Shown here: positions 3,001 through 36,393 of the stretch, in pieces
Layout: each line of letters starts with the position of its first letter
Numbering within the stretch: the stretch's first letter is position 1
Source of the DNA: Clostridia bacterium
GTDB lineage: Bacteria; Bacillota; Clostridia; RUG12999
Length of the DNA stretch: 64,000 bases
NCBI GenBank assembly: GCA_045580815.1
Contig: JAZNOL010000095.1
Location: forward strand, 6,697 to 70,696
Reading direction: 5' to 3'
Made by a program: the position numbers and the translations under genes
Notes under the pieces: generated by a model
Seen by the model: the letters and a program-made list of their open reading frames with translations, nothing else
Told to the model about the DNA's origin: nothing
The model's database searches: none

Positions 3001-3408
3001 ACTTGATTTTATCCATTCAACAGGTCCGAAATTTATTTTATCTCCGGTAAAATACCACACACCGGGAGCTCCGGGTGTTTTTCTGTTTTCGTATTCACCA
3101 ACCGAATTTTTCCAGAAAAAATTATTCAGCGATGAGCCTGCCGTACGGGCAAGAGGCATATATTTTATGCCTGATATGCCCTTTGCAAATTCGTCCGATA
3201 TTTCAAGAGAAGTTTCGGATTTCATCATTTTGCTGTTGCCGGACGACCACTCACTGCCGACCCCTAAAATTTCGGGGTCGGCTTTGCGAATTACCGTACT
3301 TTCGGTTATAACAGCCGAGGCTTCAAGCAATTCTACGGCATTTGACGCATACGGAAATACACCAAATAAAACCGCTATCGCTAAAAACATCGCCGAATAT
3401 TTCTTCAT
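1..3408 (-). CDS. Giant secreted multidomain protein, partial (C-terminus lies beyond the window start). Signal peptide, a clan GH-A-like glycosidase domain, two LamG-like 'DDFExYE' modules and a helical 'KYSDY' module.
   Basis: The minus-strand frame is open from ATG 3408..3406 to position 1; an RBS AAGGAGTGG lies about 9 nt upstream on the minus strand. It is missing from the ORF track only because it has no in-window stop. My manual translation gives about 1135 aa. It begins MKKYSAMFLAIAVLFGVFPYASNA, a signal peptide. YELGNELDG and LVITEQ resemble the acid/base (NE) and nucleophile (TE) motifs of clan GH-A. Modules start at DDMETYEEMGDFLKGPNKTVGNWRTS and DDFENYELMEEPFYGQGAQIGNWRNS. Confidence 0.7.
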   Translation of the reverse strand, partial: MKKYSAMFLAIAVLFGVFPYASNAVELLEASAVITESTVIRKADPEILGVGSEWSSGNSKMMKSETSLEISDEFAKGISGIKYMPLARTAGSSLNNFFWKNSVGEYENRKTPGAPGVWYFTGDKINFGPVEWIKSSLAADENCKFVVGINVYNESPQLNGEYAEFMTGDAKTSKLGALRAQCGIENPVDVFAYELGNELDGSLSAEEYCKRIKASIKEIKKADPDAKFIACGKTYPVEYNVTSDEWRSWHKTILKEVGGEIDYISYHAYYDGVGMAIQEKYLDMISSDIQDITGSNRIKLVITEQAKWSEVGVESYTNALTGCISTADFLIRMYNRSDVAGANYYCYPGTLDGQWGFIGKGVDEEKWYLSGIGKLYNDFGDNLGDYVLKSDINLPSELKNKVSLLAMSQENGKLKLALSNKSADYDVDINFDFENAYTLTSQTVFAADDINAKILGKDTENAIYSTTTEKNEVDFSSFVLPAKSVVFLTLERENETAINDAAVYAVTDDMETYEEMGDFLKGPNKTVGNWRTSSVYKGYGDSTKIKSGVDPADETNMVLVSNGGANPSCTSTINFSGDRTQLDSRHFAQVQFSQSNYAFYIGLRTMVHDKEKSYYELLLEPQYTKARFRKVENGEIKYEKTFVNSTNRAGDDNTLKITMNKNVISYSIGTKYSQNWVSGIFFDETPFELSGNNTGVALNISGDAGLVYADNFVLSNIEAETRRNYAKRTGKYSDYKEYVSSAINAFNSAADKDAMKLYLTTLAERIMEYDYYQITDLADDVLESLAQKLVTYSPVECRDVFETAEKLEEITKREIMVAVIESADKDEIKSVLSAYGDSFGIIPAEGVFAQYFDEICESLCLKTFKNADDLKKTYEKEGTLAFLKGKNTADRINEILTEKEYYIGFNRKLYNKIPDKTAFAQKLGAASSNFNSIDEVTSFIDGYVPDAEEFLQKTVYSDDFENYELMEEPFYGQGAQIGNWRNSHIFGGYENKNYIQIASDPTNAENRVIKANGCGINFPSCTDLTVDTSTAENQTVGVDIYRENSGHFIFGLRTKVNYYELDYYEVSFPIYNGTPVLRKVVDNKTVFETTFSDKISGNAWYRLELSVIGNAVKGEIKNSDGETVATASFTDESPFE

Positions 3409-6400: not shown

Positions 6401-8006
6401 TTTTGTCTGTATCTGTTTCGCCGCTGATGTCTTCTACAGCAACCTCACGGCTGACAGCCGCTATGAGATTTTCTATATCTGCAACAGTAATATTTTCATT
6501 ACCGAATGTTTCACTGTCAAGAAGTCTTAAAGCAACGGCAGAAAGCTTGTCGCCACCAAAGGACAACAGAACAGCAGAATCAAAATCCAGAATTTTCGGC
6601 ATTTCATCGGTAAGTGCCGATTCCATTGCCATCTTATCATTATTTTTTATTGCTTCATTGATTGCATCAACAACGCTTTGTTTGGAAGCAATATATTCTT
6701 CTTCCGTTCCTTTATTTACTGCATTTTCAAGCTCCCCTATAACAGCAATGTCAACTGACAGATTATGTCCCGACGATGATGCAGTTATTTTTGTTTTACC
6801 TTTTTTTACGGGAACAACTTTTCCGTTTTCTGCTGTTACAACTGTTTTATCACTGCTTGTCCATGTTTCTGCGATGTCTGCACCGTCAATACGCGCAAGC
6901 AAATCCACGGTTTTTCCAAGTGCCACTGTAATTGTATCTGTCACTTCGCAGTAAATATCAATATTGCTGACATTTTCGCTGTCAACAAGCCAGTATTTAA
7001 ACGCACCTTTTGTTGTTTTATTTATGATCTCTGCACCGTAATCTGTCACTTCTTCTGCTGTTATTGTGCAGATTTCGGTTTTGTCTTCAAAATTATCGTC
7101 GTTTGAGCCGTAAAGTGTTTTACCCTCAAGATTTTCGTCTGAATAAACATGAATTTTTCTTGCAATCACTGCATTTTCTGCTTTCGCAAAAGCCACACCG
7201 TCTGGCATTTCAAAACCCGCCGCCGCATTGTAATACATCATGTTTTCGGGTTGCATACCTTCAGCGTAAAAATCAAATTCTCTGTATGTGATATTATCAT
7301 AGTAAACCCATGAGTCACCGGTTGATGCAAGCTGAACCTTTGTGTCTTTAACGGCAATTTCAAAAGGTGACGCATCTTTATAGGTTCCGGAATATGTATT
7401 TCCGTCGTATGTAACACTATAATTAATGTTATTACCCATAATTTTTGCCGACAGTGTCATCCATTTTGCAGATGCGATGTTTGGCATATCTGTCAAAGTA
7501 GACGAATATTTTTCCTCACCCTCAACAACTTTTCGAAATGTGATTTTTACCGCATGTTTAGGAATATACATTTCATAGTAGCTTTTTTCGTTGCTGCTTG
7601 TCATAAAGCGCACACCGTATGATGCATCGCCGTTTTTATTCGGAATATACATATCCGCTGAAAAAAGCATATCATTTTTTGCATCAGATGTATCGGCAAC
7701 AAGATTAAGACACGCCTGGTTGCCGGACCCAAAACTGCTCATTGCCATAACTTTTTCGCCGGCAATTGTGGGATTTTCTATTACCTGAACAGACATATAT
7801 CTGCCCTGCCAGCCGGAGCCTCTGTAAACCGAAGATTTTGAAAAATTACCAACGGTAAATACGCCTGCTGTATTTGCCACATCCATTATTTCGTAATCTT
7901 CAAAATCATCAAAAAAATTAAACATTTCGGCAGAGGCATTACACACTATTCCAAATGATGAAAGCAGCATCGCCGCCACAACAAGAACGGTTATAAATTT
8001 TTTCAT
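3438..8006 (-). CDS. S-layer-anchored giant surface protein, 1522 aa. Signal peptide, two LamG-like DDFEDYE modules, two Big_2-like segments, two helical KYSDY modules, a poly-Gly linker and a C-terminal SLH triplet.
   Basis: ORF track. The N-terminus MKKFITVLVVAAMLLSSFGIVCNASA is a signal peptide. The repeated modules begin FFDDFEDYEIMDVANTAGVFTVGNF and FYDDIDSYELKMNE...IGDNF. Big_2-like segments include VALGKTVDLLARIDGADIAETWTSSDKTVVTA. The linker reads GGGSGGGGSFGGGGGAGGGSS. The last 200 aa or so carry the SLH consensus (HWAYESVSVL..., VTRAEFAKMLV, DWYYEYIMAAYENGVLKG, GRFDPAGAVTRAQAAKII). Confidence 0.85.
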   Translation of the reverse strand: MKKFITVLVVAAMLLSSFGIVCNASAEMFNFFDDFEDYEIMDVANTAGVFTVGNFSKSSVYRGSGWQGRYMSVQVIENPTIAGEKVMAMSSFGSGNQACLNLVADTSDAKNDMLFSADMYIPNKNGDASYGVRFMTSSNEKSYYEMYIPKHAVKITFRKVVEGEEKYSSTLTDMPNIASAKWMTLSAKIMGNNINYSVTYDGNTYSGTYKDASPFEIAVKDTKVQLASTGDSWVYYDNITYREFDFYAEGMQPENMMYYNAAAGFEMPDGVAFAKAENAVIARKIHVYSDENLEGKTLYGSNDDNFEDKTEICTITAEEVTDYGAEIINKTTKGAFKYWLVDSENVSNIDIYCEVTDTITVALGKTVDLLARIDGADIAETWTSSDKTVVTAENGKVVPVKKGKTKITASSSGHNLSVDIAVIGELENAVNKGTEEEYIASKQSVVDAINEAIKNNDKMAMESALTDEMPKILDFDSAVLLSFGGDKLSAVALRLLDSETFGNENITVADIENLIAAVSREVAVEDISGETDTDKILEKIEKYSDIYGIDITSEYYLKYKTEISSAFVGQTFEDILQIASLAEKIYVLGGFGDAKTSADYKNIIEKNAGIIGYDVNKYNAIGEKSDLYYSISDNKSQITTLEELRDFIDSFKAPYVSPVRNKFAFYDDIDSYELKMNERTEAVQYIGDNFKTSAVYRGSGWQGIYMTTGVAGNPANSYEDDRVMLVKGYGANNYACVNLIADRNGISSNTYGKADIFGKSVSARFGIRTAVSSDEKSYYELATKQQGNSTLTFRKVQNDEVKYESDLELKAPVGSWMTFSVGVAGNNIVYSVTVNGNTETGVYVDPQPYILTGNSATMQFMCQGDQGDVYVNNVEYRDFDVYTESQTLPKDMVYYDVAFDKELKTEDSGYSIAFGKTEVIRKIKAYSSGNFAENVKFYLANEADLSDKVLIGTSNSENINGNICEFINRTTAEPYRLVYVEGADISKVAAFIETDPTDVIKTVAGDKTELFAVINNKTDGVSYQSGNAIAATVVDGVLRSRSEGTAVITAKDENGNSRSVKVQVAGEISSAEAAGKTQEYLDEKRPVIEKINKAIKENDSATIETVLKTEISVINDFDADMVSDIIPGDLTLMAKRIVNGTPFCDASGNIGIEDVKNLIDTLIKETVVALASNRETGDAVKDSFEKYSDYYGVDMQNKYFLAYETETYDALKKRTFTSLEEVKTAFEKAYAFIAFDKNESVLKYRSIVEDNAAAIGYDADNYADIADKGSLYDAIARDKDTITDIDKLKDYIDSYEPEKSGGGSGGGGSFGGGGGAGGGSSFASSGTAAFIESQKPVGETSPYSDLQQSHWAYESVSVLSARKIINGYENGTFVPDKNVTRAEFAKMLVCAFNLEKATPEDAETVKVFEDVAENDWYYEYIMAAYENGVLKGDGGYANPQKTITREEMSVMVFRILNSTDKLLEKESVTVFADDASISEWAFTSVKNLQANGIVNGMPDGRFDPAGAVTRAQAAKIIFEATK
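3441..4046 (-). other. SLH (S-layer homology) domain triplet of the 1522-aa protein
   Basis: Three W/F...G...G.F.P...VTRAE.A motifs follow the poly-Gly linker that is encoded around 4040..4110. Confidence 0.7.
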
Positions 8007-8023: not shown

Positions 8024-8704
8024 TTATAAATCAAGCATTTCAAATATTTTCAGTGACCGCAGACTGCTTACCATTTCTTTTGTGCTGCTGTAACCGAGTT
8101 TTCTTAAAATATTGCGTATCTGGGTATTGATTGTTACCATTTCAACATTACGTTTATCGGCTATTTCTTTACGTTTTACGCCGCTGTAAACCATTTTCAA
8201 AATCTCAAGCTCTGCATTTGTAAGGTTTGTTATTACCGAAACAATATACATGAGGCTACCTTGCTGTTTATGCATTTTTGAAAATTCGCCAAGAATTTTT
8301 TTGGCTATGTTGGGTCTTATAAAAATTTCGTTTTTATATACATTTCTGATTGAAGATATTATCTCCGAATCGGAAGCTGTTTTTACAATATAATCAACGG
8401 CACCCGCACCGTAGGATTTAAAAATAAGGTCATCCTCTTTATGAATTGTGATTGTAATAATCTTGATTTCGGGGTTTTTAACCAATATTTTTTCGGTAGC
8501 GGCAATGCCTGCTTCTTCACTTTCAAGCTGAATATCCATCAGAATTATATCGGGTTTCAGTTGTTCGGCAAGCGGTATAACCTCTGATGCACTGCCTGCT
8601 GTTGCCACAACCTGCATATCGTTCTGAGAGTTTATTATCTTTTCAAAGTGCCGGCAAATTTGCGGCATATCATCGCAAATAATAATTTTAATTTCACTCA
8701 TCAA
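8024..8704 (-). CDS. Two-component response regulator, NarL/LuxR (DegU-like) family
   Basis: The receiver domain reads IIICDDMP...ILMDIQL. The C-terminal LuxR-type HTH reads LTNAELEILKMVYSGVKRKEIADKRNVEMVTINTQIRNILRKL. The gene overlaps the upstream kinase gene by 11 nt, consistent with an operon. Confidence 0.88.
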   Translation of the reverse strand: MMSEIKIIICDDMPQICRHFEKIINSQNDMQVVATAGSASEVIPLAEQLKPDIILMDIQLESEEAGIAATEKILVKNPEIKIITITIHKEDDLIFKSYGAGAVDYIVKTASDSEIISSIRNVYKNEIFIRPNIAKKILGEFSKMHKQQGSLMYIVSVITNLTNAELEILKMVYSGVKRKEIADKRNVEMVTINTQIRNILRKLGYSSTKEMVSSLRSLKIFEMLDL

Positions 8705-10199
8705 GATCTATCTCCTTCATTGTCGGTAACAAAATCTGAAACTCGGTATATTTGCCTTCTTCACTTTCAACAAAAATAAGACCGTTGTGCGCCGAAAGCA
8801 CCTTATAAACATACGACAGCCCTATCCCCCAGCTTTTTGAGTTGTGCTTGGTGGAAAAAAGCGGTTTGAAAATTTTCTTCATATTTTTTCTCGGTATTCC
8901 GCAACCGTTATCACGGATTGATGTAAGAATCCAGTCGCTTTCACTTTTTACATAAATTTCTATACGCTTTTCCGATTCATTTTCTTCCACGGCTTCTATT
9001 GCGTTGTAAAGCATATTTTCAAACATTCTTGTTATATGCCTTTTATCGCACAAAACCTCAACTCTTTTTTCCGGAAAATCATACTCAACCTTTATATTGC
9101 GGTCAACAACCGTTAACTTAACTGCTTTTTCAATTCGCTCGCAAATATCCGCTTCTTCAATATTTATTTCAGATTCATTGAATACACTGAGCAGATTAGA
9201 GAGCGAATGTGCTGATTTTTCTGTGATTATCTGTAGTTCTTTAACATCCTCAAGTCCCTGTGGCGTGCCGTAATTTTCCTCAATCGATTCACTTAAAAAT
9301 TTAAGGCTGATAAGCACGTTTTTATATGAATGAAGCACGGGACGTATATCCGAAAACAGTAGTTTTGTTCGTTTTGAAATTGTCAGTTTCTTAAAAAAGT
9401 CCACACGCTCAAGCACGCGGAATTTTGCCAGCATAACAACAGTTCCTTCAAACAAAACAAGAACCGCAAAGGGGATTATTGTGTACATAACCTGCGAATA
9501 TCTCAAATATGCATTATTGAATTTAAGCAAATTTGTCAGATCAATAAGAGAAAATTCGAATGTACTGATAAACAGCATATAAATATAGAATACATTTATG
9601 AATGACAACACAATTACCATAACTGTTATTTTGTGCTTTTTGTACATGATGTTTGTGTTGTGATATTCCATAATAAACGTCACAATCGGATACAGTATGT
9701 AGAATATCACAATTGCATAGTTAAGATACCTGGCAACTTCTAAAACAGTAAACGCAACGGCACGTTCCGCATCATGCAAAGAATAATATACAAATGCATG
9801 CAGTTTGCGGCAAAATTCCGAAGAATTTACAATAAAAAACAACACCGCCGGAATCAGGCTTATCACATTTATAAGCACTCGTTTACCGTCTTTTTTTGTT
9901 GGTTCAAAAAACCTTGCAAACATCCACATTGCCAGCATATAAACGAATATGCCGAAATTCAGTATATTCACCGCTTCATAAAATCCAATTTTTCTGTTTG
10001 ACAGCCACATATAGATTTTATTTTCAAAATTAAAGAAAGCAGTTATAGCGGACATCTTGCTTACAAGCAGTATCATAGCAAGCATCATGCAAGCTATGCT
10101 GAAGCTCATAAGCACAAACACCCATGTATGACGGTTTTTATAGTTTATCGCCAGAAGTGCCACTGCAAATATAAACAAAAGTACGATTGCAACAATCAT
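8694..10199 (-). CDS. Sensor histidine kinase with a multi-pass membrane N-terminus, a LytS/YesM-type His_kinase box and a HATPase_c domain
   Basis: The first roughly 250 aa are hydrophobic, about 6-7 TM segments. The putative H-box RPVLHSYKNVLISLKFL resembles the PF06580 consensus (nPHFLfNtLnsI). The HATPase motifs are NMLYNAIEAV...DNGCGIP...GIGLSY. Confidence 0.8.
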   Translation of the reverse strand: MIVAIVLLFIFAVALLAINYKNRHTWVFVLMSFSIACMMLAMILLVSKMSAITAFFNFENKIYMWLSNRKIGFYEAVNILNFGIFVYMLAMWMFARFFEPTKKDGKRVLINVISLIPAVLFFIVNSSEFCRKLHAFVYYSLHDAERAVAFTVLEVARYLNYAIVIFYILYPIVTFIMEYHNTNIMYKKHKITVMVIVLSFINVFYIYMLFISTFEFSLIDLTNLLKFNNAYLRYSQVMYTIIPFAVLVLFEGTVVMLAKFRVLERVDFFKKLTISKRTKLLFSDIRPVLHSYKNVLISLKFLSESIEENYGTPQGLEDVKELQIITEKSAHSLSNLLSVFNESEINIEEADICERIEKAVKLTVVDRNIKVEYDFPEKRVEVLCDKRHITRMFENMLYNAIEAVEENESEKRIEIYVKSESDWILTSIRDNGCGIPRKNMKKIFKPLFSTKHNSKSWGIGLSYVYKVLSAHNGLIFVESEEGKYTEFQILLPTMKEIDLDE

Positions 10200-10257: not shown

Positions 10258-11100
10258 TTAACCTTTTACGGCACCATTTGCAAGACCTGAAACAAAATAT
10301 TTGTTTCCTATTGCATATACCACTAAAACAGGAAACATTGAAATTACAGAGCCTGCCATCATAAGATTCCACTGAGATGCCGATTCGCCCACATTTTTAA
10401 GTGCATAAAGTCCTGCTGAAAGTGTGCGCTGAGCCGGGTTGCTTATTGTAAAAATCATTGGCATGAGGGTTTCGTTCCATGAACTCTGAAACGCAAGTAT
10501 TCCTATTGTTGTAAGTACCGGTTGCAGAAGCGGAACAATAACTTTTAAAAATATTCCACCAAAGCCACATCCGTCAATTGTTGCCGCTTCGTCCATTTCT
10601 TTTGGAAGCGTATGTATAAACCCGCGGACAAGATATATTCCTGTTATGTTTATTCCAAAAGCCTTTATTACAAGAAGACCGGCAAGTGAGCCGCCAAGGC
10701 CCATACTTTTTACTATTTTTAAAAGCGGCACTGTTGTTGCACCACCCAGATTAACAAACATAAGTGCTGTTAATATTCCAAAAACTACTTTTTGTCCGGT
10801 AAAATGCCCTCTTGCAAAAACATATCCCCCAAGAGCAGTGCTCACAAGTTGAATAACAACTATACATGCTGAATAATAAATACTGTTCCACATAAGGGTT
10901 GGCACATGAAAGCTGTCGCTTTCCCAGGCTATCTTATAGTTTTCAAAGGTAAATATTTCAGGAAACAGTGATGCCGAGGTCATAATTTCCTGATTTGATT
11001 TGAATGATGCCAGAATCGTATAGACAAGCGGATACAAGGTTATAACAAGCACGCTTGTCAAAAACAGATAAGCAAGAGTTTTGGGTAAAATTTTTCTCAT
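10258..11100 (-). CDS. Carbohydrate ABC transporter permease (MalG-like)
   Basis: Six predicted TM segments; EAA-loop PKEMDEAATIDGCGFGGIFLKVIVP. Confidence 0.88.
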   Translation of the reverse strand: MRKILPKTLAYLFLTSVLVITLYPLVYTILASFKSNQEIMTSASLFPEIFTFENYKIAWESDSFHVPTLMWNSIYYSACIVVIQLVSTALGGYVFARGHFTGQKVVFGILTALMFVNLGGATTVPLLKIVKSMGLGGSLAGLLVIKAFGINITGIYLVRGFIHTLPKEMDEAATIDGCGFGGIFLKVIVPLLQPVLTTIGILAFQSSWNETLMPMIFTISNPAQRTLSAGLYALKNVGESASQWNLMMAGSVISMFPVLVVYAIGNKYFVSGLANGAVKG

Positions 11101-11112
11101 TTTCTTTTCCTC

Positions 11113-12045
11113 CTATGCTTCGCTGTTTTTACTTAATTTAAGATATATAAGTGACGTTGTTGCAAGCACCAATGACGTAATAACAGCCATTGCCGAGCCG
11201 TAGCCTATATTGCCGCCGTCCATAATAAAACCTGGCACAAGGTTTTTGAGAAGATGTGTCATAATAACCTCTGTTGAGCCGCCCGGACCGCCGTTTGTAA
11301 GCATAAGGATAAAATCACCTGTTGCCAGAGTTCCGTTTATTGCAAGCATTATGATAATTCTCATAACAGGCATTATCTGCGGAATGGTTATGCTGAAAAA
11401 TTGTCTGATGGGTCCTGCTCCGTCAAGAGAGGCACTTTCGTAAAGCTCTTCCGACACATTAGACATTGCCGACATAAAATAAAGAACGTTTATGCCAAAG
11501 GTATGCCAAACCGAGGCAACTACGATAACCGCCATTGCTGTTGCTTTTTCCGAAAACCAGCTGATGTTTTCTGTTATAAACCCTGCCGCTTTAAGCATAG
11601 AGTTTATAATTCCGAAATGCGAAAACATACTTGTGAACATTATGCCGACAATTGCCGCACTGATAATATTCGGCAAAAAATATATTGAACGGAAAAAACC
11701 CTTGAATTTTATTTTCCGGCTTAAAACCACTGCAAGAATAAGTGCAAGCGGTATTTCAATCGGAAGTTTGCAAACTGCAAACAAGAAAGTGTTTCCAAGT
11801 GCTTTCCAGTATCTGTCATCTACAGTAAACATTGTTATAAAGTTTTCCCAGCCGACAAACTTTGTTTCGGAGGGAACGCCCGTATAATAAAACCATGCAA
11901 GACGAACCGCCCATATAATGGGATAAAGTGTAAACACAAAAAAACCGATAATCTGCGGCGAAATCATTGCATACGCCGTCAGATCATGCTTTTGCTGAGA
12001 AGAGCCGAAATATTTTTTCTTTTTACTTTTTGTCGCAGTAGTCAT
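11113..12045 (-). CDS. Carbohydrate ABC transporter permease (MalF-like)
   Basis: TM-rich; EAA-loop YESASLDGAGPIRQFFSITIPQ. Confidence 0.88.
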   Translation of the reverse strand: MTTATKSKKKKYFGSSQQKHDLTAYAMISPQIIGFFVFTLYPIIWAVRLAWFYYTGVPSETKFVGWENFITMFTVDDRYWKALGNTFLFAVCKLPIEIPLALILAVVLSRKIKFKGFFRSIYFLPNIISAAIVGIMFTSMFSHFGIINSMLKAAGFITENISWFSEKATAMAVIVVASVWHTFGINVLYFMSAMSNVSEELYESASLDGAGPIRQFFSITIPQIMPVMRIIIMLAINGTLATGDFILMLTNGGPGGSTEVIMTHLLKNLVPGFIMDGGNIGYGSAMAVITSLVLATTSLIYLKLSKNSEA

Positions 12046-12133: not shown

Positions 12134-13516
12134 TTAATTTACAGGAACAAGAGAATTTTCTACAATATAATCTTCAAGTTTATATTTATCGCTGTTTTCT
12201 TCAAGCCATTTTGTTCTTGCCTCACCAACACGTGTTGTAAGGTCAGCAAGTGCATCATCAACGCTCACTTTTTCTGTCCAGATATCTTCAATAAATACCT
12301 GGTTGAAGTTTTTCTGACCGGTGAGTGTTGCTGTAGGTGATCTCCATGAAGGCACACTCACTTCTACAAGCTCACAGAATTCTTTCCAGCCTGTGGGAGC
12401 ATTTTCGCCAAGATCAACGTCTTTAACAATATTCCAGTCATAGGGAATTGATTTTCCGTCTTTATAAAGACCTGTCAGCACTTCTTCACTGTGAATCCAT
12501 TTGAATGCTTCCATAAGTCTTTCTTTATCTTTTGTTTCTGCCGATTTCTTGTTGATTGAAAGATAACCGTCAGAAGCCATTCTTGTTGCATAGCGCACGC
12601 CCTCTTTTGCTGTGGGAGCAGGTGCTACTGCCCAATCACATTTTGCCGGGAACTGGTCTGTATAAACGCCAACGTCATAAGAACCTGCAAATTTCATACC
12701 AACATTACCCTCTGCAAACTGTGCACGGCCGGGGTCGTTGTCAATACCCTCGGGGTCCGGATAATATGATTTGTCCGCTTTAATGCCCATATACATATCA
12801 ACAATCGGTTTATATCCCATATAATCGGTTGCGCCTGTTTCGGGATTAAAGTTCATATATCCCTGATTTGCCATACCCACAAACTCTATATCGCTGTCAA
12901 CAAACCACTTGTTTTTAAGCGGTAACATAATACCGTATTCCTGATTTTCGGGATGTGTGAGTTTTTTTGCATAGTCACGCACCTGGTCATATGTTTTGGG
13001 AGGTGTAGCCTCGCCGTTTTCATCAACAATACCGTATTTTTTAAACATATCCTTGTTATAAACCATACCAAATGTTGTTACATAAAACGGAACTCTGTAT
13101 GTTTTGCCCTCGTTCATATGTGTGCCTTCAACAAGTTTGCCTTCGTACTGTTTGATATATTCCGGACCACCGGGCATATCGTCAAGAGCTATTATTTTAT
13201 CCATCTCTGAATATTTTTTAACTGCCGCCGAGAAGAAATCAGGTGCATTGTCAGCTTCTATCGCCATTGTAACAGCTTCGCCGCTTGACTGAATCTGATA
13301 ATCAATTTTGATACCTTTTTCTTTACCTTCGCCCTCGTTATATTTGCTTACAAGAGCCTCCATTGTTGCTTTGGAGTGTGAATCGTTTGTCCACGCTGTA
13401 AATGTCCATGTGTCGCTGGATTTGTTGTAACCCGTATCATTGCCGCCGCAGGCACAAAGCGATGCCGCCATTGCAAGCGAAAGCGCTGCGCAAATAATTC
13501 TTTTGCCGTTTTTCAT
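12134..13516 (-). CDS. Extracellular solute-binding lipoprotein of the sugar ABC transporter
   Basis: Lipoprotein signal MKNGKRIICAALSLAMAASLCACGG; size and composition fit SBP family 1. No ABC ATPase gene is present in the cluster. Confidence 0.85.
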   Translation of the reverse strand: MKNGKRIICAALSLAMAASLCACGGNDTGYNKSSDTWTFTAWTNDSHSKATMEALVSKYNEGEGKEKGIKIDYQIQSSGEAVTMAIEADNAPDFFSAAVKKYSEMDKIIALDDMPGGPEYIKQYEGKLVEGTHMNEGKTYRVPFYVTTFGMVYNKDMFKKYGIVDENGEATPPKTYDQVRDYAKKLTHPENQEYGIMLPLKNKWFVDSDIEFVGMANQGYMNFNPETGATDYMGYKPIVDMYMGIKADKSYYPDPEGIDNDPGRAQFAEGNVGMKFAGSYDVGVYTDQFPAKCDWAVAPAPTAKEGVRYATRMASDGYLSINKKSAETKDKERLMEAFKWIHSEEVLTGLYKDGKSIPYDWNIVKDVDLGENAPTGWKEFCELVEVSVPSWRSPTATLTGQKNFNQVFIEDIWTEKVSVDDALADLTTRVGEARTKWLEENSDKYKLEDYIVENSLVPVN

Positions 13517-13541: not shown

Positions 13542-13579
13542 ATTGCATCTGCCGCATATGCGGTTGCGGCAGATGCAAT
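13542..13579 (-). promoter_or_regulatory. Strong dyad stem-loop (15-bp stem) between the giant-protein gene and the binding-protein gene
   Basis: ATTGCATCTGCCGCA-tatgcggt-TGCGGCAGATGCAAT. It is flanked by T-runs on the plus strand and A-runs on the minus strand, so it is not a canonical terminator for the minus-strand operon. Confidence 0.45.
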
Positions 13580-13591
13580 TTTAATTTTTAA

Positions 13592-16500
13592 TTATTCTGT
13601 ATATGCAACTGCACTGCTCATCGGAGGAATAACAACTTTTTCGCCGTTGATAAATCCGTAAAGTGTTACAGTTTCACTTGGGTTGTAGATATAATCTTTG
13701 CCAACCTCAACATTTTTTGATGCCATGTAGTAGTCGTAAATATCAATAGTGGTTGCTCTCCACACATCGGGACGGTTAAATTTTGCACAAAAGGCATCAA
13801 AGTTTTTAACTACTTTTGCTGTGGGACCTGCATCAGGATTAGTTTCATCAGGTGCAACTTCTGCCGCATGTGTCCATACAGAGAACATAAGCAGTTCTTC
13901 GTTGTCTTCGGTATTCAGGAAAGTATTTACAACATCGTTGTGATAATCATACCAGAGTGCACTTTCGAGTGTGTATGTACATCTCCATTCCATCCAGTCT
14001 TCAGGCATTGAGAACGAGCTTGAAAAACCTACATGTCGTGCAGATACATAACCAAGCTCTCTGAGATAATCTTTAAGAGCTTCATATTCTTCTTCGCCAC
14101 GTGCTACAGGTGCCTGATAAGGCCACATAAAGTTTCTGGGTGTTACGCCGTATGCTTCAATCATTTTTTCGTGCTGTGATAAAATTGATTTTTTACAGTC
14201 TTCCAGAGTATATACCTCTGCATTACTCATTGCAATGTGTGAAGAATGGTTTGCAAGCTCGTGACCGTGTTCAAGTGCTGTGTTGTAAAACTCAGGCACG
14301 TTGTTGTATGCAAGGTTGAAGGTTCCTTTGATATCGTTTTTATCCATAATTTCCATTACACGTTTGTCAGGTTCAACAATACCGTCATCATAGTTGATGC
14401 TCATTGACTTATTTGTGAATGTGGGGTATGTAATGCGATATTCGTTAATTTCGCCTTTTTCATAAACTTTAGCCTGTGTAAGCGGTTTTACTCCTGCAAA
14501 AGAACCGTCCCAGCAGAGGAGTTTAAGTTTTTTGTAATCTGCCGGTGTTTCAATATCAAGCGTCATTGTGTCAACATTTGTGTTTGAATAAGGCAACTCA
14601 ACTTCTGATGCGCTGATGAGTTTGTCATTTTCTCCATAGAATGCCGCAATATATTTTGCGTTTTCGGTATAATAAGCACTGCCGAGGGTAATTTCAAGAC
14701 CGCCGCCGCTTGTATTAACCGAATATTCGCGGATAACATCCACATCAATACTTACAGAGTTACCTACTTCTGTTGCTGTTACTTTAACAGCACTGTCTGT
14801 TTCTTTTGAGGGAACAAGCTCGTTTCCTGATGCTGTAACGTATCCGTCCGCAGAATATGTCCAAACTGCCGCATCTGTATCGTAACTGTCAATTCTCGGA
14901 ACGAGATGCAGTTTTGAACCAATTCTCACATCAAGATTATCTACCTCGGTATAAACTTTGATTTCCGAAGCACTACCGCCATTTGAGGAAAGTTTGATGT
15001 ATCTGTAAAGGTTGTTTGTTTTTGTGTTTACTATTTCGCCGTCTTCGGTGATTTTTTCAAGATAATACCATGTTGCATTATCATCAGACACATACATATC
15101 AACTGTGCCATTTACGCCCGAAGCAACTACTTTTCTGATAATTCCGCTACGCTGCATATCAATAACAACATCACCTGCAAAAGTGTATAATGCATCGGTT
15201 TTGCCGTCATTAAGCACACCTGCGTTTGTATCTTCTGCATAAACAGGTTTGTTTGCTGTTGCGTTTTCATACATCATATTAACCGCTTCTTCTTTTTCGT
15301 CAATATATGTATCAACGCTGCCGGCAACCATGTTGTCATAATATGCCATATATCCGCTGTTGCTTGCAATTGCTATTCTGCCGTTTGTTTTAATGGGTGA
15401 GGGGTCATCATAGCTGCCTGCAAAAAGCACTTCTCCGCTATCCTTTTTAGTTACCGAATAAGTGATAACATTGCCTGATTTTCTCATTTCGAGAGTCACC
15501 CAGGTTAAGTTTATGGCAGGAATTTCAGATACTGAATCTATATAACTGTCTTCCTCTGTTTCCGCAACCTTATTAAAGCTTATTGTAATCGGATTATACG
15601 GATTTCCGGTGATTCTCAGGTCATAAAACACTGTTTCGCCGTCCTGAACAGACATTCTGATACCGGCAGATTTCACGCCCCAATGCGTCAATTTCATATC
15701 TGTTTTAAACATGAAATCTTTTTTCTCATCGGGTTTGAGTTTGAGGTTTGCAGTTCCCCAGCTGTTATTTGTGCCCATTTCCGCAAGCACGGTGTTGCCG
15801 TCGTCAAGAGTTATTGACTGCATGCTTACACCATCGTTCCAGCCTTTCCACTGGCTTGATGTTGACCAGTCGCCAACTTTTTTGCCCGGGCCGGTAAGTG
15901 CCGCTTCCATATTTTCATAGTCTTCAAAATCTTCTGTATAAAGAAGTGTAACAGGTTTGTTTGCTTCAACTTTTACTGAAAGTGATGCATCGCCGAATGA
16001 TGCGGTTGCTGTTGTAGTACCAAAACCGACTGCCTTTATGTATGCACCATCTGCCATAGCAACTTTGTCGTCACTTACTGACCATACACCGCCGTCAAAT
16101 TTATCTTCTCCGCCAAGACGGGGGTACAATTTAAGCACTGTTTCTTCATCAAGCTGATATGTTTTGGTAAGGTCTGCTTCATTAAGAATTTTAACGCCGT
16201 CAACAGTAAAATCATCGCCGCCGTGATTTACAATTATAACTGTTTTAGCCTGCTGAACTGCAGTTGTGTTAAGAATATTTCCCTCTGCTGACAGTTCGCC
16301 GAGCTTTGTCCATGTTGAAATACTGTTTTCAATTGATTCTGCAAGATAAACGCTTACCGCACTTGGTGTTTCAAGACCGTCAAGCATCACACGGCGTATT
16401 TTCTGTGCGTCTTCAAATGTGTATGTAACGTATTTGTACTCTGTGTTTGTTTCTACTGTTGCATCAGATGCAATATCCTGATACATTATTGTTGCCGGGT

Positions 16501-17935
16501 CTTCTTTTGCACCTACAAACGGGTCAACACTGCCTGCAACCATGTTGTCGTAATAGTTGGGCTGTCCGCTGTTGCTTGCAACAGAAATTCTTCCTGTTGT
16601 TTCAAGAGGTGACGGGTCGTTATAACTGCCTTCAAAAATCACTGTGCCGTCAGCTTTTTTTGCAACCGAATAATAGATAGTGTTTCCGGATTTTCTCAGT
16701 TCAACAGTTACCCATCCATCATTTATTGCCGCAATATTACTTTCTGAATATGTATATTCTGTTGCACTGTCTCCCGTAACCTTTAAAAAGCTCATTGTCA
16801 TGGGGTTATAGGGATTTGTGCCCATTCTGAGTGCGTAATACTTTTTCTGTGTGCTGTCAACGCAAATACGGATATCGTTATTTCTGTTTGACCAATGAGT
16901 GTACGCCAAGTCTGTTTTAAACATGAAATCCATATCGGGGTCAGCTTCAATGTTAAGTACTGATGCACCCCAGCTGCCATCTGTACCTCTTGCGGCAAGA
17001 ACGGTGTTGCCGTCATCAAGAGTAAGCGATTGCAACATTACGCCATCGTTCCAGCCTTTCCATGTGTTTGACGTTGTCCAGTCGCCGACTGTCTGGTTCG
17101 GACCTGTAAGTGCCGCTTCCATGTTTTCATAGTCTTCAAAATCTTCTCTATAAAGATTGTCCTCCGGCTCAACAATAACAGGTGCAACAGCACTGACTTC
17201 CATATTGTCATAATAGTTATAAATTCCGCTGTTGCTTGCAACAGAAATTTTCCCTGTTGTTGCAAGAGGTGCCAGGTCCACATAGTTTCCGCTGAACACT
17301 ACCACGCCGTCAGCTTTTTTCGTTACTGAATAACTGATTAAATTGCCGGTTTTTTTCAGTTCAAGAGTTACCCATGCATTATTTATTGCCGCAACATCGC
17401 TTTTTGAATATGTATATTCTGTTGCGGTGTCTCCCGTAACCTTGTGAAAACTCATTGTCATGGGGTTGTAGGGATTTGTGCCCATTCTGAGCGCGTAATA
17501 TGATGTTTCTTTTTCATTTACACATATGCGGATGTCATTATTCCGGCTATTCCAACCTGAATGTTTCATATCTGTTTTGAAAACAAAATCATCATTTGCA
17601 CCAATATTTTCAAGTTTCAGATTTGATGCACCCCAGCTGTTGTCTGTACCCATTGCCGCAAGAACGGTGTTGCCGTCGTCAAGAGTAATTGACTGCAATT
17701 TAAGACCGTCCTGCCAGCCTTTCCATACGGTTGATGTTGTCCAGTCGCCGACTGTCTGGCTCGGACCTGTAACCGGGTCTGTCATGTTTTCATAGTCTTC
17801 AAAATCTTCGGTATAAATAATACCTGTTGCATCAGTTTCGGTATCTGCGGCAAAAACCGAACCCGTTGCCATTGTTGCCGCAAGCATAAGCACAAAAAGC
17901 ACCAATGCCACAGCACGTTTAAATGTTTTTTTCAT
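13592..17935 (-). CDS. Secreted 1447-aa protein: three LamG-like DDFEDYENM modules, two discoidin-like plus Big_2-like segments and a C-terminal CE4 polysaccharide deacetylase domain
   Basis: Signal peptide MKKTFKRAVALVLFVLMLAATMATGSVFA. Three modules are about 80 % identical to one another (EDFEDYENM...VGDW...YYALRMGTNPYNPMTMSF.KVTGD). The CE4 motifs are present: SINYDDG (the TFDDG-like motif), HGHELANHS and MWPYQAP. Confidence 0.85.
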   Translation of the reverse strand: MKKTFKRAVALVLFVLMLAATMATGSVFAADTETDATGIIYTEDFEDYENMTDPVTGPSQTVGDWTTSTVWKGWQDGLKLQSITLDDGNTVLAAMGTDNSWGASNLKLENIGANDDFVFKTDMKHSGWNSRNNDIRICVNEKETSYYALRMGTNPYNPMTMSFHKVTGDTATEYTYSKSDVAAINNAWVTLELKKTGNLISYSVTKKADGVVVFSGNYVDLAPLATTGKISVASNSGIYNYYDNMEVSAVAPVIVEPEDNLYREDFEDYENMEAALTGPNQTVGDWTTSNTWKGWNDGVMLQSLTLDDGNTVLAARGTDGSWGASVLNIEADPDMDFMFKTDLAYTHWSNRNNDIRICVDSTQKKYYALRMGTNPYNPMTMSFLKVTGDSATEYTYSESNIAAINDGWVTVELRKSGNTIYYSVAKKADGTVIFEGSYNDPSPLETTGRISVASNSGQPNYYDNMVAGSVDPFVGAKEDPATIMYQDIASDATVETNTEYKYVTYTFEDAQKIRRVMLDGLETPSAVSVYLAESIENSISTWTKLGELSAEGNILNTTAVQQAKTVIIVNHGGDDFTVDGVKILNEADLTKTYQLDEETVLKLYPRLGGEDKFDGGVWSVSDDKVAMADGAYIKAVGFGTTTATASFGDASLSVKVEANKPVTLLYTEDFEDYENMEAALTGPGKKVGDWSTSSQWKGWNDGVSMQSITLDDGNTVLAEMGTNNSWGTANLKLKPDEKKDFMFKTDMKLTHWGVKSAGIRMSVQDGETVFYDLRITGNPYNPITISFNKVAETEEDSYIDSVSEIPAINLTWVTLEMRKSGNVITYSVTKKDSGEVLFAGSYDDPSPIKTNGRIAIASNSGYMAYYDNMVAGSVDTYIDEKEEAVNMMYENATANKPVYAEDTNAGVLNDGKTDALYTFAGDVVIDMQRSGIIRKVVASGVNGTVDMYVSDDNATWYYLEKITEDGEIVNTKTNNLYRYIKLSSNGGSASEIKVYTEVDNLDVRIGSKLHLVPRIDSYDTDAAVWTYSADGYVTASGNELVPSKETDSAVKVTATEVGNSVSIDVDVIREYSVNTSGGGLEITLGSAYYTENAKYIAAFYGENDKLISASEVELPYSNTNVDTMTLDIETPADYKKLKLLCWDGSFAGVKPLTQAKVYEKGEINEYRITYPTFTNKSMSINYDDGIVEPDKRVMEIMDKNDIKGTFNLAYNNVPEFYNTALEHGHELANHSSHIAMSNAEVYTLEDCKKSILSQHEKMIEAYGVTPRNFMWPYQAPVARGEEEYEALKDYLRELGYVSARHVGFSSSFSMPEDWMEWRCTYTLESALWYDYHNDVVNTFLNTEDNEELLMFSVWTHAAEVAPDETNPDAGPTAKVVKNFDAFCAKFNRPDVWRATTIDIYDYYMASKNVEVGKDYIYNPSETVTLYGFINGEKVVIPPMSSAVAYTE
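13945..14545 (-). other. CE4 (polysaccharide deacetylase) catalytic domain region of the 1447-aa protein
   Basis: The Asp motif YDDG, the His motif HGHELANHS and the RxPY-like WPYQAP occur in the expected order. Confidence 0.65.
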
Positions 17936-23058: not shown

Positions 23059-25932
23059 GTGAAAAACGTTTTAAAACGCTTATTTTCTCTGTTCACCATT
23101 GTTTGTGTTATTGCATCATGTGTCGCAATAACAGCCGCTGCCGAAGAGGTTTATGTAAACCCTATGAGCGGCACAGGCAATGTTACAACCACAAGTGCCA
23201 TTCTTACCAACGGCAGTTGGGATGACAAATGGTATGCCCGCGGTCTTTCAAACGGTGAGCTTACCACTGCCGACGGCAGATATCTTGTTGTAAAGGCAGC
23301 ACATACCGAAAGCGGAATACGCATTACAACAAACTATGCTATCTGCGGTCTCTGGCGATATGTGCCGGCGAGCACCTTTGAAGCAGGCAACACTTACAGA
23401 TTAAGAGCAACCTTCAGAATAAATTCTGACGGTAAAACAGGTTTTATATCCAATAATAAAGCAAATTTCAAACTGCGTCTTATGTATGACGGTACAAACC
23501 CTGTTTTTGAAAGTCAACGTCTCATAATTGACAAATGCGATGAGTTTGTTACACATACTCAGGAATTTGTAATGACCGAAGAAATGCTTGACGGTCACAC
23601 AAAAATGTATATGGACATAGATTGTCCGTCTTCCGGCTCTCTGTTTTCTGATGCAAACTTCCCTACCGGCAGAATTACAATGGATTTTCTTGAGTTTGTT
23701 ATTGAAAAAGCCGATATCTATACTGTTATCGGCAAAACAGAGCCTAATTCGACACTGACAGTTGAACTTAAACACAAATATGAAGAGCAGGTTTATTACA
23801 CAAAAGACGTAACAGCCGATGAAAACGGAAGATTTGAAACAGACATTGCTTTTTATCACAATATTGATGATTTTTATGTATGTGTAAAAGACGGAGAAAA
23901 CACATCTGTAAAAAGCATGAACACTTTCTTTGAAACAGATGGCAAAAAAATTGTTGAAACAGATTTTTTTGCAGATGTTCCCACAAATGGTGTGTATGTT
24001 AATGGGTTTACCGTAAACGGAGTTGCTTCACCTTTTAACAAAATCACTTTGCCTGAAACTGCAAAAACAGTTTCGGTTACAGCAAAAAGCATTGATTATG
24101 AAGGTGACTCCACATTAATCGGTGTTCTTTATGAAAACGGTAGTGCAAAAGAAATTGCCTGCGATGTTCAGTCGCTTATCCCCGGTGCAGACGGTAATTA
24201 TTCCATTTGTCTCGGTGAAGGCGGAGACGAAATCAGGTTCTTTCTTTTGGATTCAATTTCATCCATGAAGCTTTTAAGCCGCGAATATGTAATTGACACC
24301 AAAGGCACAACCGAAAAAAGATATAAAGCAAACGCATCCGTTACAACTGTTACATCCGATTTTAATCCCGTAACAGCAACGGCTGATATCACAAGAGACG
24401 GTGGGGACGGTACGGCAACTGTTGTTATAACAAAAAAAGATGTTGTTTTATCTGACATAACCGCCGATACAATAAACATCAATGTTGCCGCTGTTGTAAA
24501 CAGTGAATCTAATGTTACAAGTGTAAAAAAATCCACCGAAAAACCTGATGGTGAAACCTACAAATTCCCGGACGGTACATATACCGCATATGTTTCTGGC
24601 GTTAAAAACACACAAGACTATTCTTACACTACACCCGACACACTTTTAAATGCTTATTCAACTCTTAATGGTTCAAATGTTGATTTTGACAGTTTCGATG
24701 CATGTATATCCGATGCAAAATTAAAGCTTGACCTTTCGGAATACAACTCCCTTGGAAGCAACAAAAAATATGCAAAAGATGTGTTTATGAAAGTTAAAAC
24801 AGAAGACATATCGTCCGTAGGGCAAATACAGACGTTGCTTGATACATCGGTAAGCACCGTGCTTCTGTCAAGTGCTCCTACTGTATCCCTGATTGAAAAA
24901 TACGGAACCCTGTTAGGTTTTGATTCTGTTTTGCTTGAAGAATTCAAAACTGCTGACGAGGATGTTAAAACCGATACTGCATCTCTTATGAAAAGCAATG
25001 CTCATTCACTTGACAGCCTGACTGTAGAGCTTGTTAAAAACCGCTTTACAGACGGTTATGTTACGGCTATGATAAACAATGCCGAAACCTATGGCATGAT
25101 AAAACAGTTTATCTCTGATAATTATAAAAATTATATCAGTGTAAACCTCAACAAGCTTGAAGACAACGACGTAAACAGCGGTGATGTTTTTAAAGATATG
25201 TTGGATATGATTCCTTTTGACAGCATAAAAGATATTGAAGACAGCTATTCAGATGCTGTGGATGACAATACCAGCTCCTCCGGTGGCGGATTTGGCGGCG
25301 GAGGCGTCGGTGGCGGAGGCTTTGGTGCCTCCGGCAATATCAAAACCGAAACTATGAGCGCAATTGTTCCGGCAGAAGCTGTTATTTTTGAAAAAACCGC
25401 AACCTTTAAAGACGTAAACAAAGATTTTTGGGCATATGATTACATTGAAAATCTTGTAAATCTTGGAGTAATTTCAAAATCCGATAATTTCAGACCAAAC
25501 GACGATATAACCCGCGAAGAATTTGTTAAAATGGTTGTTGTGGCATTTTACGGCAGCCCCTCCGGTGGACTTGCAACATATACTGATGCCACCGCCGGCG
25601 CATGGTATTATCCTTATCTTGCAAAAGCTCAGGAACAACAGATAATCAGCGGAATGCCCGACGGCAGTTTTGGTGTTGGCGAAAAAATCACACGCCAGGA
25701 TATGGCTGTTATTATTGACAGAATAATTGGTAAAGACGATACTCCAAACACATTTGAATTTAGTGACGATGATGCAATTTCGTCTTATGCACGTGAAGCT
25801 GTATACAATATTTACAGCACAGGTGTTATCGGCGGATTTGAAGACAGCACTTTCAGACCGCAAAAAAATGCCACACGTGCTGAGTGTGCAAAAATAATTT
25901 CTCAGGCATCAACACTTAAAAATACACATTAA
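23059..25932 (+). CDS. Surface protein, 957 aa, GTG start; helical KYSDY-like module, poly-Gly linker and a C-terminal SLH triplet
   Basis: RBS AAGGAGG 9 nt upstream of GTG at 23059. Signal peptide MKNVLKRLFSLFTIVCVIASCVAITAAA. Linker SSSGGGFGGGGVGGGGFGASG. SLH motifs include FWAYDYIENLVNLGVISK..., ITREEFVKMVV, WYYPYLAKAQEQQIISGMPDGSF and ATRAECAKII. Confidence 0.85.
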   Translation: MKNVLKRLFSLFTIVCVIASCVAITAAAEEVYVNPMSGTGNVTTTSAILTNGSWDDKWYARGLSNGELTTADGRYLVVKAAHTESGIRITTNYAICGLWRYVPASTFEAGNTYRLRATFRINSDGKTGFISNNKANFKLRLMYDGTNPVFESQRLIIDKCDEFVTHTQEFVMTEEMLDGHTKMYMDIDCPSSGSLFSDANFPTGRITMDFLEFVIEKADIYTVIGKTEPNSTLTVELKHKYEEQVYYTKDVTADENGRFETDIAFYHNIDDFYVCVKDGENTSVKSMNTFFETDGKKIVETDFFADVPTNGVYVNGFTVNGVASPFNKITLPETAKTVSVTAKSIDYEGDSTLIGVLYENGSAKEIACDVQSLIPGADGNYSICLGEGGDEIRFFLLDSISSMKLLSREYVIDTKGTTEKRYKANASVTTVTSDFNPVTATADITRDGGDGTATVVITKKDVVLSDITADTININVAAVVNSESNVTSVKKSTEKPDGETYKFPDGTYTAYVSGVKNTQDYSYTTPDTLLNAYSTLNGSNVDFDSFDACISDAKLKLDLSEYNSLGSNKKYAKDVFMKVKTEDISSVGQIQTLLDTSVSTVLLSSAPTVSLIEKYGTLLGFDSVLLEEFKTADEDVKTDTASLMKSNAHSLDSLTVELVKNRFTDGYVTAMINNAETYGMIKQFISDNYKNYISVNLNKLEDNDVNSGDVFKDMLDMIPFDSIKDIEDSYSDAVDDNTSSSGGGFGGGGVGGGGFGASGNIKTETMSAIVPAEAVIFEKTATFKDVNKDFWAYDYIENLVNLGVISKSDNFRPNDDITREEFVKMVVVAFYGSPSGGLATYTDATAGAWYYPYLAKAQEQQIISGMPDGSFGVGEKITRQDMAVIIDRIIGKDDTPNTFEFSDDDAISSYAREAVYNIYSTGVIGGFEDSTFRPQKNATRAECAKIISQASTLKNTH
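25384..25929 (+). other. SLH domain triplet, C-terminal
   Basis: SLH consensus repeats after the Gly-rich linker. Confidence 0.7.
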
Positions 25933-33241: not shown

Positions 33242-33247
33242 TGCAGG

Positions 33248-33280
33248 TTTATCCGGGGATTTTCTAAATCCCCGGATAAA
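33248..33280 (+). promoter_or_regulatory. Intra-operon stem-loop (12-bp stem) without a clear U-run
   Basis: TTTATCCGGGGA-ttttctaaa-TCCCCGGATAAA. Confidence 0.4.
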
Positions 33281-33313
33281 TTAAACTTAACAAGAAAGAC
33301 GGAGATACGCTCT

Positions 33314-36379: not shown

Positions 36380-36393
36380 AAGGAGGCACATTC

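Follow-up and report, generated by a model that had tools for sequence, protein, structure and literature searches.

Our question concerned a family-less protein module that recurs in a 64-kb stretch of DNA (hereafter the window): what kind of domain is it, and what does it do for the secreted proteins that carry it? Three copies (A, B, and C) are found in a 1447-residue multidomain protein encoded at 13592..17935 (−), as seen from its ORF, its translation, and an HMM scan. The module, we find, most likely represents a new offshoot of the known sugar-binding modules and serves to keep enzymes and surface proteins attached to a plant or host glycan.

The module is ∼213–215 residues long. Module A comprises residues 38–250 (17186..17824, −), module B residues 258–470 (16526..17164, −), and module C residues 662–874 (15314..15952, −), all delineated by module HMM scan and copy comparison. 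All three match the profile at E = 1e-40 to 1e-44. A scan of all six frames of the window with this HMM returned exactly seven copies (3 + 2 + 2) and none beyond these. The diverged copies are located as the original prediction had it, two in the gene 3438..8006 (−) and two in the gene 1..3408 (−), the last one being cut by the window edge. The repeat is visible at the DNA level: a 23-mer quoted as shared occurs exactly at 15912, 17124, and 17787, and a 24-mer at 17073 and 17736 (0 occurrences in 100 shuffles in either case), and shadow ORFs on the plus strand (15711, 16899, and 17526) are present and mutually similar. The repeat is real, yet it had been overstated. The copies were called near-identical, but share only 68% (A/B), 60% (B/C), and 56% (A/C) of their residues and 75.5, 69, and 67% of their nucleotides, respectively (range 67–76%), with dS values of 0.65–0.98. 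They were also called tandem, which is correct for A and B but not for C, separated from B by 191 residues that hold F5/8-type-C-like and Big_2-like domains. An assembly artefact is ruled out; the copies differ at one-quarter to one-third of their nucleotides and keep the reading frame.

The dS values (Nei-Gojobori) also bear on the age of the repeat, which had been attributed to recent duplication or concerted evolution. With synonymous divergence this high, the duplication is old. Recent gene conversion was likewise rejected on these values, and the exact shared blocks fall on the best-conserved motifs, EDFEDYENM and QTVGDWTT. A, B, and C are mutual nearest relatives (the next relative is at about 31% identity), and their dN/dS ratios are 0.35–0.43. 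As judged from these comparisons, they are a lineage-specific trio that was duplicated long ago and is under purifying selection. The four other copies in the window (D–G) are older than the trio. The proposal that recombination between the repeats alters their number is weak, with exact runs common to the copies of at most 23–27 nt embedded in sequence of 67–76% identity. We expect strains to differ only rarely in copy number.

The absence of a family, claimed at the outset, is borne out: the window copies lack significant Pfam, NCBIfam, or PDB-sequence matches. The suggested link to DUF1080 is the best lead available, but it is marginal and brings no established function with it. A profile built from 46 family members and searched against PDB sequences with hmmsearch returned only the CBM66 of Bacillus subtilis (PDB IDs 4b1l, 4azz, and 4b1m; E = 0.017–0.024). 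CBM66 and DUF1080 are the same domain (PMC5673643). The corresponding Pfam model, PF06439, is matched by 2 of 48 family proteins at E ≤ 0.1 (best E = 2.4e-8); one of the two, P0011, scores 28.4 bits over a gathering threshold of 26.8, reached only by summing sub-threshold stretches, and has no phmmer match among PDB sequences. No window module attains this threshold, and neither the seven modules nor their whole proteins match PF06439 even at E ≤ 10. An hhalign comparison with a single 106-residue CBM66 fragment (E = 0.004, probability 8%) is uninformative, and a search with that fragment yielded just five short levanase fragments, too few for a DUF1080 profile. Other weak matches that recur among the relatives (BT_3657-like_N, GH43_C2, and Bac_rhamnosid) are ConA-like as well. 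The C-terminal lectin domain of GH59 (PF21708) is matched by 1 of 48 relatives, and a whole-protein search gave 16.2 bits (E = 0.011) against a threshold of 27 bits.

A structure model of module B predicts a ConA-like β-sandwich that can be superposed on BsCBM66. The predicted fold is a jelly-roll of two antiparallel sheets with about 6–8 strands each, as in clan CL0004, and its best structural matches are non-catalytic domains. The module is about 50 residues longer than CBM66/PF06439 (3keto-disac_hyd) and is marked by a signature of its own: DDF-x-x-Y at the N terminus, then W29, D85, and D183-x-x-P, and F-D-N at the C terminus. It also differs in forming arrays of as many as six copies and in the gene cassette that encodes it. 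Neither of the ligands known for CBM66, the ends of fructans and xanthan treated with lyase, is supported here. In GH59, one lectin domain packs against the catalytic barrel; the present modules stand in series, with no GH59 domain involved. Two further ConA-like domains, CBM2 of the phage J-1 Dit protein and the GH43 C-terminal domain (PF17851), have no significant sequence similarity to the module and occur in different contexts, a phage baseplate and a single domain on a GH43 propeller, respectively.

In the 1447-residue protein, the domain order is signal peptide, A, B, X1-Big2, C, X2-Big2, Z, and CE4 deacetylase. The X1 and Big_2-like pair (residues 471–661; 15953..16525, −) is 24% identical to the X2 and Big_2-like pair that follows module C (residues 875–1060; 14756..15313, −). 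X1 is F5/8-type-C-like; the homologous region of the relative P0016 is annotated F5_F8_type_C. The Z domain (residues 1061–1165; 14441..14755, −) has no family and is ∼95 residues long. By phmmer it recurs near the C terminus of many family proteins (P0003, P0005, P0007, P0010, P0012, P0016, and others). The C-terminal domain (13595..14416, −) is a divergent CE4 polysaccharide deacetylase: Polysacc_deac_1 (PF01522) matches residues 1174–1275 at E = 2e-10, or 5e-11 with the C-terminal fragment alone, and scores 41–43 bits against a cut-off of 23.1. The Asp-Asp and His-His motifs for metal binding and catalysis can be seen in the translation (YDDG and GHELANHSSH), and there are weak PDB matches to the CE4 enzyme of Clostridium thermocellum (2c71) and to a peptidoglycan GlcNAc deacetylase. 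Deacetylase activity is predicted but not assured, given an atypical His spacing and a likewise atypical R-x-P-Y motif (MWPY).

The genes downstream resemble a sugar uptake locus, all on the minus strand. The gene for an ABC sugar solute-binding lipoprotein (SBP_bac_1; 12134..13516; Pfam and synteny) follows the module gene after a gap of 75 nt. Between the two lies a palindrome with a 15-bp stem (13542..13579); it was rejected as an operon terminator, since the transcribed (−) strand continues from it into an A-run and has no U-tail. Next come two ABC permease ORFs (10258..12045), at the position of BPD_transp_1 in syntenic loci, and ORFs for a histidine kinase and a GerE/LuxR-type response regulator (8024..10199), assigned from HATPase_c and Response_reg/GerE in those loci. 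The gene 3438..8006 encodes a 1522-residue SLH-anchored surface protein (Pfam SLH, E = 2e-39) with modules D (7272..7928) and E (5367..6026), which match the family HMM at E = 1e-53 and 2.5e-48. Both are followed by X-Big2 and a ∼200-residue helical region, and the protein has an internal duplication (31% identity over 411 residues). The gene 1..3408, cut by the window edge, encodes an N-terminal TIM-barrel-like glycosidase domain (weak ASD1_dom match) and modules F (1255..1905) and G (1..555, truncated). All three module proteins have signal-peptide-like N termini.

Beyond the window, the family is very small, forming 73 clusters among 1.84 billion representatives, with 124 full-length copies in 70 proteins (1–6 each, mostly in N-terminal arrays). 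None of these proteins has a name, and most come from gut Clostridia metagenomes. The module is fused to CE4, GDSL lipases/esterases, DUF4886, F5/8-type-C, Big_2, and SLH domains. The gene order (module protein, SBP, two permeases, histidine kinase, response regulator, SLH-module protein, and GH-module protein) is kept in loci L005 and L007, and locus L010 of Ructibacterium gallinarum DSM 107454 has a weak copy of the module. The three closest SBP orthologues (56–67% identity) each have a three-module gene that ends 60–230 nt upstream, and genes for GH95, melibiase, GH31, GH28, and GH2 lie nearby. The module is absent from 38 of 38 loci with distant SBPs (Rhizobium and others). Scanning the whole 1447-residue protein against genome contigs of GTDB representatives gave no relative. 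A homologue search in a protein collection returned nothing for the CE4 domain and nothing for the seven-module alignment, although that collection includes the window proteins. The locus is like Gram-positive polysaccharide utilization loci with multimodular SLH-anchored CAZymes, in that it brings together secreted CAZymes, an ABC importer whose SBP is a lipoprotein, a two-component regulator, and binding proteins anchored by SLH domains. It differs in that current family models miss nearly all of its catalytic and binding domains, and the substrate cannot be read from annotation.

In the interpretation that we favor, the module binds carbohydrate as a lectin-like, non-catalytic domain with a ConA-like β-sandwich and is a distant, as yet unmodelled relative of CBM66/DUF1080. 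We hold this to be probable, though well short of certain. In its favor, the only PDB match is CBM66, the module occurs in multiple copies on secreted fusion proteins, the context is one of SBPs and glycosidases, and dN/dS is low. The repeat, the predicted fold, the lack of a database family, the domain partners, and the conserved order of genes are what we observe. What we infer is that the module binds carbohydrate, that its copies are multiplied for the sake of avidity, and that the ligand is probably a glycan of plant walls or of the host that carries acetyl groups. The modules would be exported on proteins with Sec signals, and in arrays of one to six copies weak binding at single sites could sum to an avid hold on a polymeric glycan. 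They may thereby target and retain on the substrate the CE4 deacetylase described here, GDSL/SGNH esterases elsewhere, a glycosidase, and SLH-anchored surface proteins. Breakdown products would then pass to the ABC importer encoded immediately downstream, with the neighboring two-component system controlling the cassette. A more specific version is tentative and somewhat doubtful: the module would found a CBM family apart from CBM66, bind a probably acetylated dietary or host glycan, and mark a conserved uptake cassette of uncultured gut Clostridia (MAGs from Hadza humans, deer, goat, and chicken), the multi-module protein acting in extracellular glycan capture that feeds the ABC importer. CAZy grants CBM status on demonstrated carbohydrate binding. 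Secreted CAZymes commonly carry lectin-like modules in tandem, and general principles are unaffected by our finding. The surface proteome of uncultured fiber-degrading gut Clostridia is in large part without families, and the module is a clean, testable example with a sharp signature, a confident fold prediction, ∼130 copies in ∼70 proteins worldwide, and a cassette beside an ABC importer. Its ligand, once defined, would annotate the whole cassette and point to the glycan on which these organisms specialize; enzyme engineering could gain another CBM family or a CBM66 of new specificity.

Could the module instead be an enzyme? Several conserved residues stand out among 129 highly diverged copies, namely Arg-99 (83%), Lys-128 (83%), Tyr-109 (71%), Tyr-110 (94%), Asp-183 (88%), and Asp-206 (87%), and this pattern of charged and aromatic residues could just as well belong to an active site or bind a metal. 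In module B, positions R99, K128, Y109/Y110, D85, and D183 correspond to R356, K385, Y366/Y367, D342, and D440 of the whole protein. The active site of a ConA-fold enzyme, either DUF1080-related (3-keto-glycoside hydrolase/hydratase type) or GH16/PL7/PL14-like, would in that case be built from the conserved Arg, Tyr, Lys, and Asp. We consider this very improbable. The consensus Glu-111 is replaced by Ala, Ala, and Asp in A, B, and C, the conserved His/Gln of PL7 and the Glu-x-Asp-x-x-Glu motif of GH16 are absent from the module, and its nearest structural matches lack catalytic function. Up to six copies per protein, fused to bona fide esterases and SLH anchors, are the habit of a CBM rather than of a catalytic domain.

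The same conservation can be read as structural, as the most strongly conserved positions sit in predicted β-strands and are possibly core residues. The module might accordingly be a ligand-free spacer or stalk, whose repeats just push the enzymes outward from the cell. However, the Big_2 domains, helical regions, and Gly-rich linkers of the same proteins already do that job, and the dN/dS ratios, together with surface-type charged residues that are kept down to about 20% identity, point to a specific role, making a mere spacer a poor candidate. Binding to the cell's own envelope, to a partner protein, or to a surface polysaccharide of another cell, as in phage receptor-binding modules, would make the module a device for anchoring or adhesion rather than a substrate-targeting CBM. 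We regard this as unlikely, if less so than the spacer: the SLH-anchored paralogue already has its anchor and still bears two modules, and loci rich in glycosidases and sugar importers fit nutrient glycans. An envelope or adhesion role would remain carbohydrate binding by the same fold.

The ORF at 13592..17935 (minus strand), whose translation is a 1447-aa protein, contains a genuine homologous repeat. Protein-level comparison defines three modules on the minus strand, A (aa 38-250, 17186..17824), B (aa 258-470, 16526..17164) and C (aa 662-874, 15314..15952), and a repeat search reported families of direct repeats, each in three copies 68-82% identical, whose starts lie 1212 and 660 nt apart. 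The copies had been described as near-identical and tandem. The first term overstates pairwise identities of 68% (A/B), 60% (B/C) and 56% (A/C) in protein and 75.5, 69 and 67%, respectively, in DNA, where the longest exact runs are 23-27 nt. The second holds for A and B, which adjoin, but not for C, which lies 191 aa further along, past F5/8-type-C-like and Big_2-like domains. The two oligonucleotides quoted in the original prediction, whose translations EDFEDYENM and QTVGDWTT are the best-conserved peptides, match exactly within a few bases of where they had been placed and are absent from shuffled sequence; on the plus strand, the pseudo-ORFs at 15711, 16899 and 17526 are present as antisense shadows of the repeat. 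In a six-frame scan of the window, a family HMM recovers these three copies and the predicted diverged ones, two (D and E) in an SLH-anchored protein (3438..8006, minus strand) and two (F and G, the latter truncated at the window edge) in a glycosidase-like protein (1..3408, minus strand), and none beyond these seven.

No Pfam-A or NCBIfam model matches the modules significantly, and solid domain matches across the three proteins are limited to CE4 (Polysacc_deac_1, aa 1174-1275 of the 1447-aa protein, E = 2e-10) and SLH. When 1.84 billion cluster representatives were searched exhaustively with HMMER, just 73 proteins scored E ≤ 1e-3, and iteration from these yielded 124 full-length copies in 70 proteins (1-6 each), placed mostly as N-terminal arrays right behind the signal peptide. 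The clusters derive from NCBI MAGs and ENA, JGI and Logan metagenomes, and all those looked up are unnamed. With a profile built from the seven window copies, no credible match to PDB sequences emerged; a 46-member profile hit a single PDB domain, the CBM66 of levanase SacC (E = 0.017), in an alignment spanning the core strands GIRF, YYEL and F-KV-NG. A Pfam scan of 48 full-length family proteins recorded recurrent weak matches to PF06439 (3keto-disac_hyd/DUF1080; 2/48, best E = 2.4e-8), BT_3657-like_N (3/48), GH43_C2 (2/48) and Bac_rhamnosid (2/48), all of them ConA-like families. One relative, P0011, scores 28.4 bits against PF06439 (cut-off 26.8).

We obtained AlphaFold2 models of module B from a 7-sequence alignment (pLDDT 78, pTM 0.82) and from 46 diverse family members (pLDDT 86.5, pTM 0.87). 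Both are all-beta with 15 strands, and the model resembles thrombospondin and ERGIC-53 lectin domains and phage receptor-binding domains, in agreement with Foldseek matches to legume lectins, BoNT Hcn and GH16 (E ∼1e-6 to 1e-5). The ConA/LamG-like fold guessed from the sequence stands, and so does the DUF1080 lead. The window copies themselves do not qualify as PF06439 members, and hhalign against one single CBM66 fragment gave an uninformative 8% probability. DUF1080 and CBM66 are one domain under two names (PMC5673643), and the ligands known for CBM66 are the ends of fructan chains and xanthan treated with lyase (PMC11002231; PMC6560043). The module is a distinct, unmodelled sequence family within the ConA-like superfamily, closest to CBM66/DUF1080: genuine, rare, without annotation, and of the same general type as the well-known lectin-like CBMs of secreted CAZymes. 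It merits a Pfam or CAZy entry but would not surprise a specialist.

Positions conserved over 129 copies (module B numbering) form a signature of D7-D8-F9-x-x-Y12, W29, S32, G37 and D85 in the N-terminal part; G97-I-R99-F, E106, Y109-Y110-E-L and F-x-K128-V-x-x-G132 in the center; and W151, I163-x-W165, G179-x-x-x-D183-x-x-P186 and F205-D206-N207 toward the C terminus. R99, Y109/E111 and F126/K128 fall on three successive predicted strands, and the i, i+2 spacing of the two pairs would place them with R99 on one sheet face, plausibly a putative binding cleft. Loop insertions make module length vary from ∼205 to 290 aa, a pattern common in domains whose specificity is tuned by loops.

Fusion partners among the 48 proteins are SLH (7/48), GDSL esterases (4/48), F5/8-type-C (4/48), Big_2 (4/48), CE4 (2/48) and DUF4886 (1/48). 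The simplest interpretation is that the module binds glycans and is not catalytic; its multivalent arrays would keep esterases, a glycosidase and S-layer-anchored proteins attached to a polymeric substrate, the products of which could enter via the adjacent ABC importer. Rival readings are a catalytic module, as in the DUF1080, GH16 or PL enzymes that share the fold; binding to cell envelopes or proteins, in the manner of phage receptor-binding modules; and a passive spacer. Copy numbers, fusion partners and the pattern of conservation fit each of these less well than they fit glycan binding. For a glycan-binding module, the predominance of esterases among the partners suggests an acetylated polysaccharide as candidate ligand, and the neighboring GH families suggest plant-wall or host glycans.

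The original prediction inferred recent duplication or concerted evolution, with repeats prone to recombinational change in copy number. Nei-Gojobori dS is 0.65 (A/B), 0.76 (B/C) and 0.98 (A/C), with dN/dS of 0.35-0.43, and dS for the D/E pair of the neighboring gene is saturated at about 4. Codon choice agrees at 63-75% of identically conserved residues, where codon usage predicts 46-48%. The closest relatives of A, B and C are one another (next best match anywhere ∼31%), whereas a positional orthologue of each of D, E, F and G exists in other organisms' proteins (41-52% identity). The F5/8-type-C-like/Big_2-like pairs following B and C share just 24% identity, which argues that the modules were duplicated or homogenized independently of their flanks. 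The event took place within the present lineage but is ancient rather than recent, and no evidence of ongoing concerted evolution was found. With exact blocks of 23-27 nt in 67-76% identical DNA, the copies should be poor recombination substrates, contrary to the proposed instability.

The module-CE4 gene is followed in a minus-strand cassette by genes for an SBP_bac_1 solute-binding lipoprotein (SBP), two permeases, a histidine kinase, a GerE-type response regulator, the SLH-anchored protein with modules D and E, and the glycosidase-like protein with F and G, with intergenic distances between −10 nt (an overlap) and 88 nt. On the divergent side lie an HTH-BadF/BadG-type sugar-kinase-like protein, a GH59-like enzyme with CBM9 and several SLH proteins. 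Between the module-CE4 and SBP genes, the 75-nt gap holds a palindrome (13542..13579; perfect 15-bp stem with 8 G-C pairs, 8-nt loop), followed by an A-run on the transcribed minus strand (a T-run on the plus strand), which may be an mRNA-processing or -stabilizing hairpin or a terminator of antisense transcription.

The cassette recurs in another Clostridia MAG (GCA_045603225.1, loci L005/L007), with a 3-module protein, SBP, two permeases, histidine kinase, response regulator, SLH-module and GH-module proteins, then GH31 and GH28. At L001 and L003 the module protein lies immediately upstream of SBP, with GH95 and melibiase close by, and at L006 SBP and permeases precede an SLH-module protein, with GH2 downstream. 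When an SBP alignment was scanned against GTDB representative genomes, the three closest orthologues (56-67% identity; Clostridia MAGs, two from Hadza gut samples) all had, upstream of the SBP gene, a gene with three modules whose end lies 60-230 nt away. Modules occurred within 10 kb at six of the ∼40%-identical SBP loci and at 0/38 loci with remote SBPs, such as those of Rhizobium. The six include Ructibacterium gallinarum DSM 107454, the sole cultured, named organism in which a copy was seen and a possible experimental handle; its weak copy (E = 5e-8; L010 19325..21331, NZ_JADCKB010000021.1) lies ∼8 kb downstream of a 43%-identical SBP gene.

The predicted CE4 domain (13595..14416, minus strand) is very divergent: its His-His motif, GHELANHSSH, is one residue short of usual, R-x-P-Y appears as MWPY, and neither a word-index search nor the PDB gave a close relative (best 2c71, E = 1e-3). 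Upstream of it, a ∼95-aa domain without a Pfam match (14441..14755, aa 1061-1165; motif …YIAAFYGENDKLISA…KLLCWDG…KPL…) recurs near the C terminus of many SLH-less family proteins (P0010, P0012, P0016, P0003, P0005, P0007, P0038) and could serve in anchoring or docking. An apparently helical region of ∼200 aa, with no Pfam family, follows each unit of module, F5/8-type-C-like and Big_2-like domains in 3438..8006 (minus strand, aa 430-660 and 1075-1300; 31% identity over 411 aa including flanks) and is single in 1..3408 (minus strand, aa 719-951; 23-26%). Three successive large ORFs at 31556..38673 (plus strand; 561, 1021 and 766 aa) lack any Pfam match at E ≤ 1e-5, and relaxing the limit to E ≤ 0.5 brings up nothing but noise. 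In two different surface proteins, encoded at 3438..8006 (minus strand, ∼aa 1300-1325) and 23059..25932 (plus strand), the SLH triplets come after long linkers rich in Gly and Ser (GGGSGGGGSFGGGGGAGGGSS and similar). The N-terminal ∼500 aa of the edge-cut gene (1909..3408, minus strand) resemble a clan-A TIM-barrel glycosidase (…FAYELGNELD…VITEQAKW…), with a sub-threshold match to ASD1_dom (GH51-like, E = 0.003); the domain is conserved in the relatives P0003 and P0005-P0007 and thus possibly represents an unclassified GH family.
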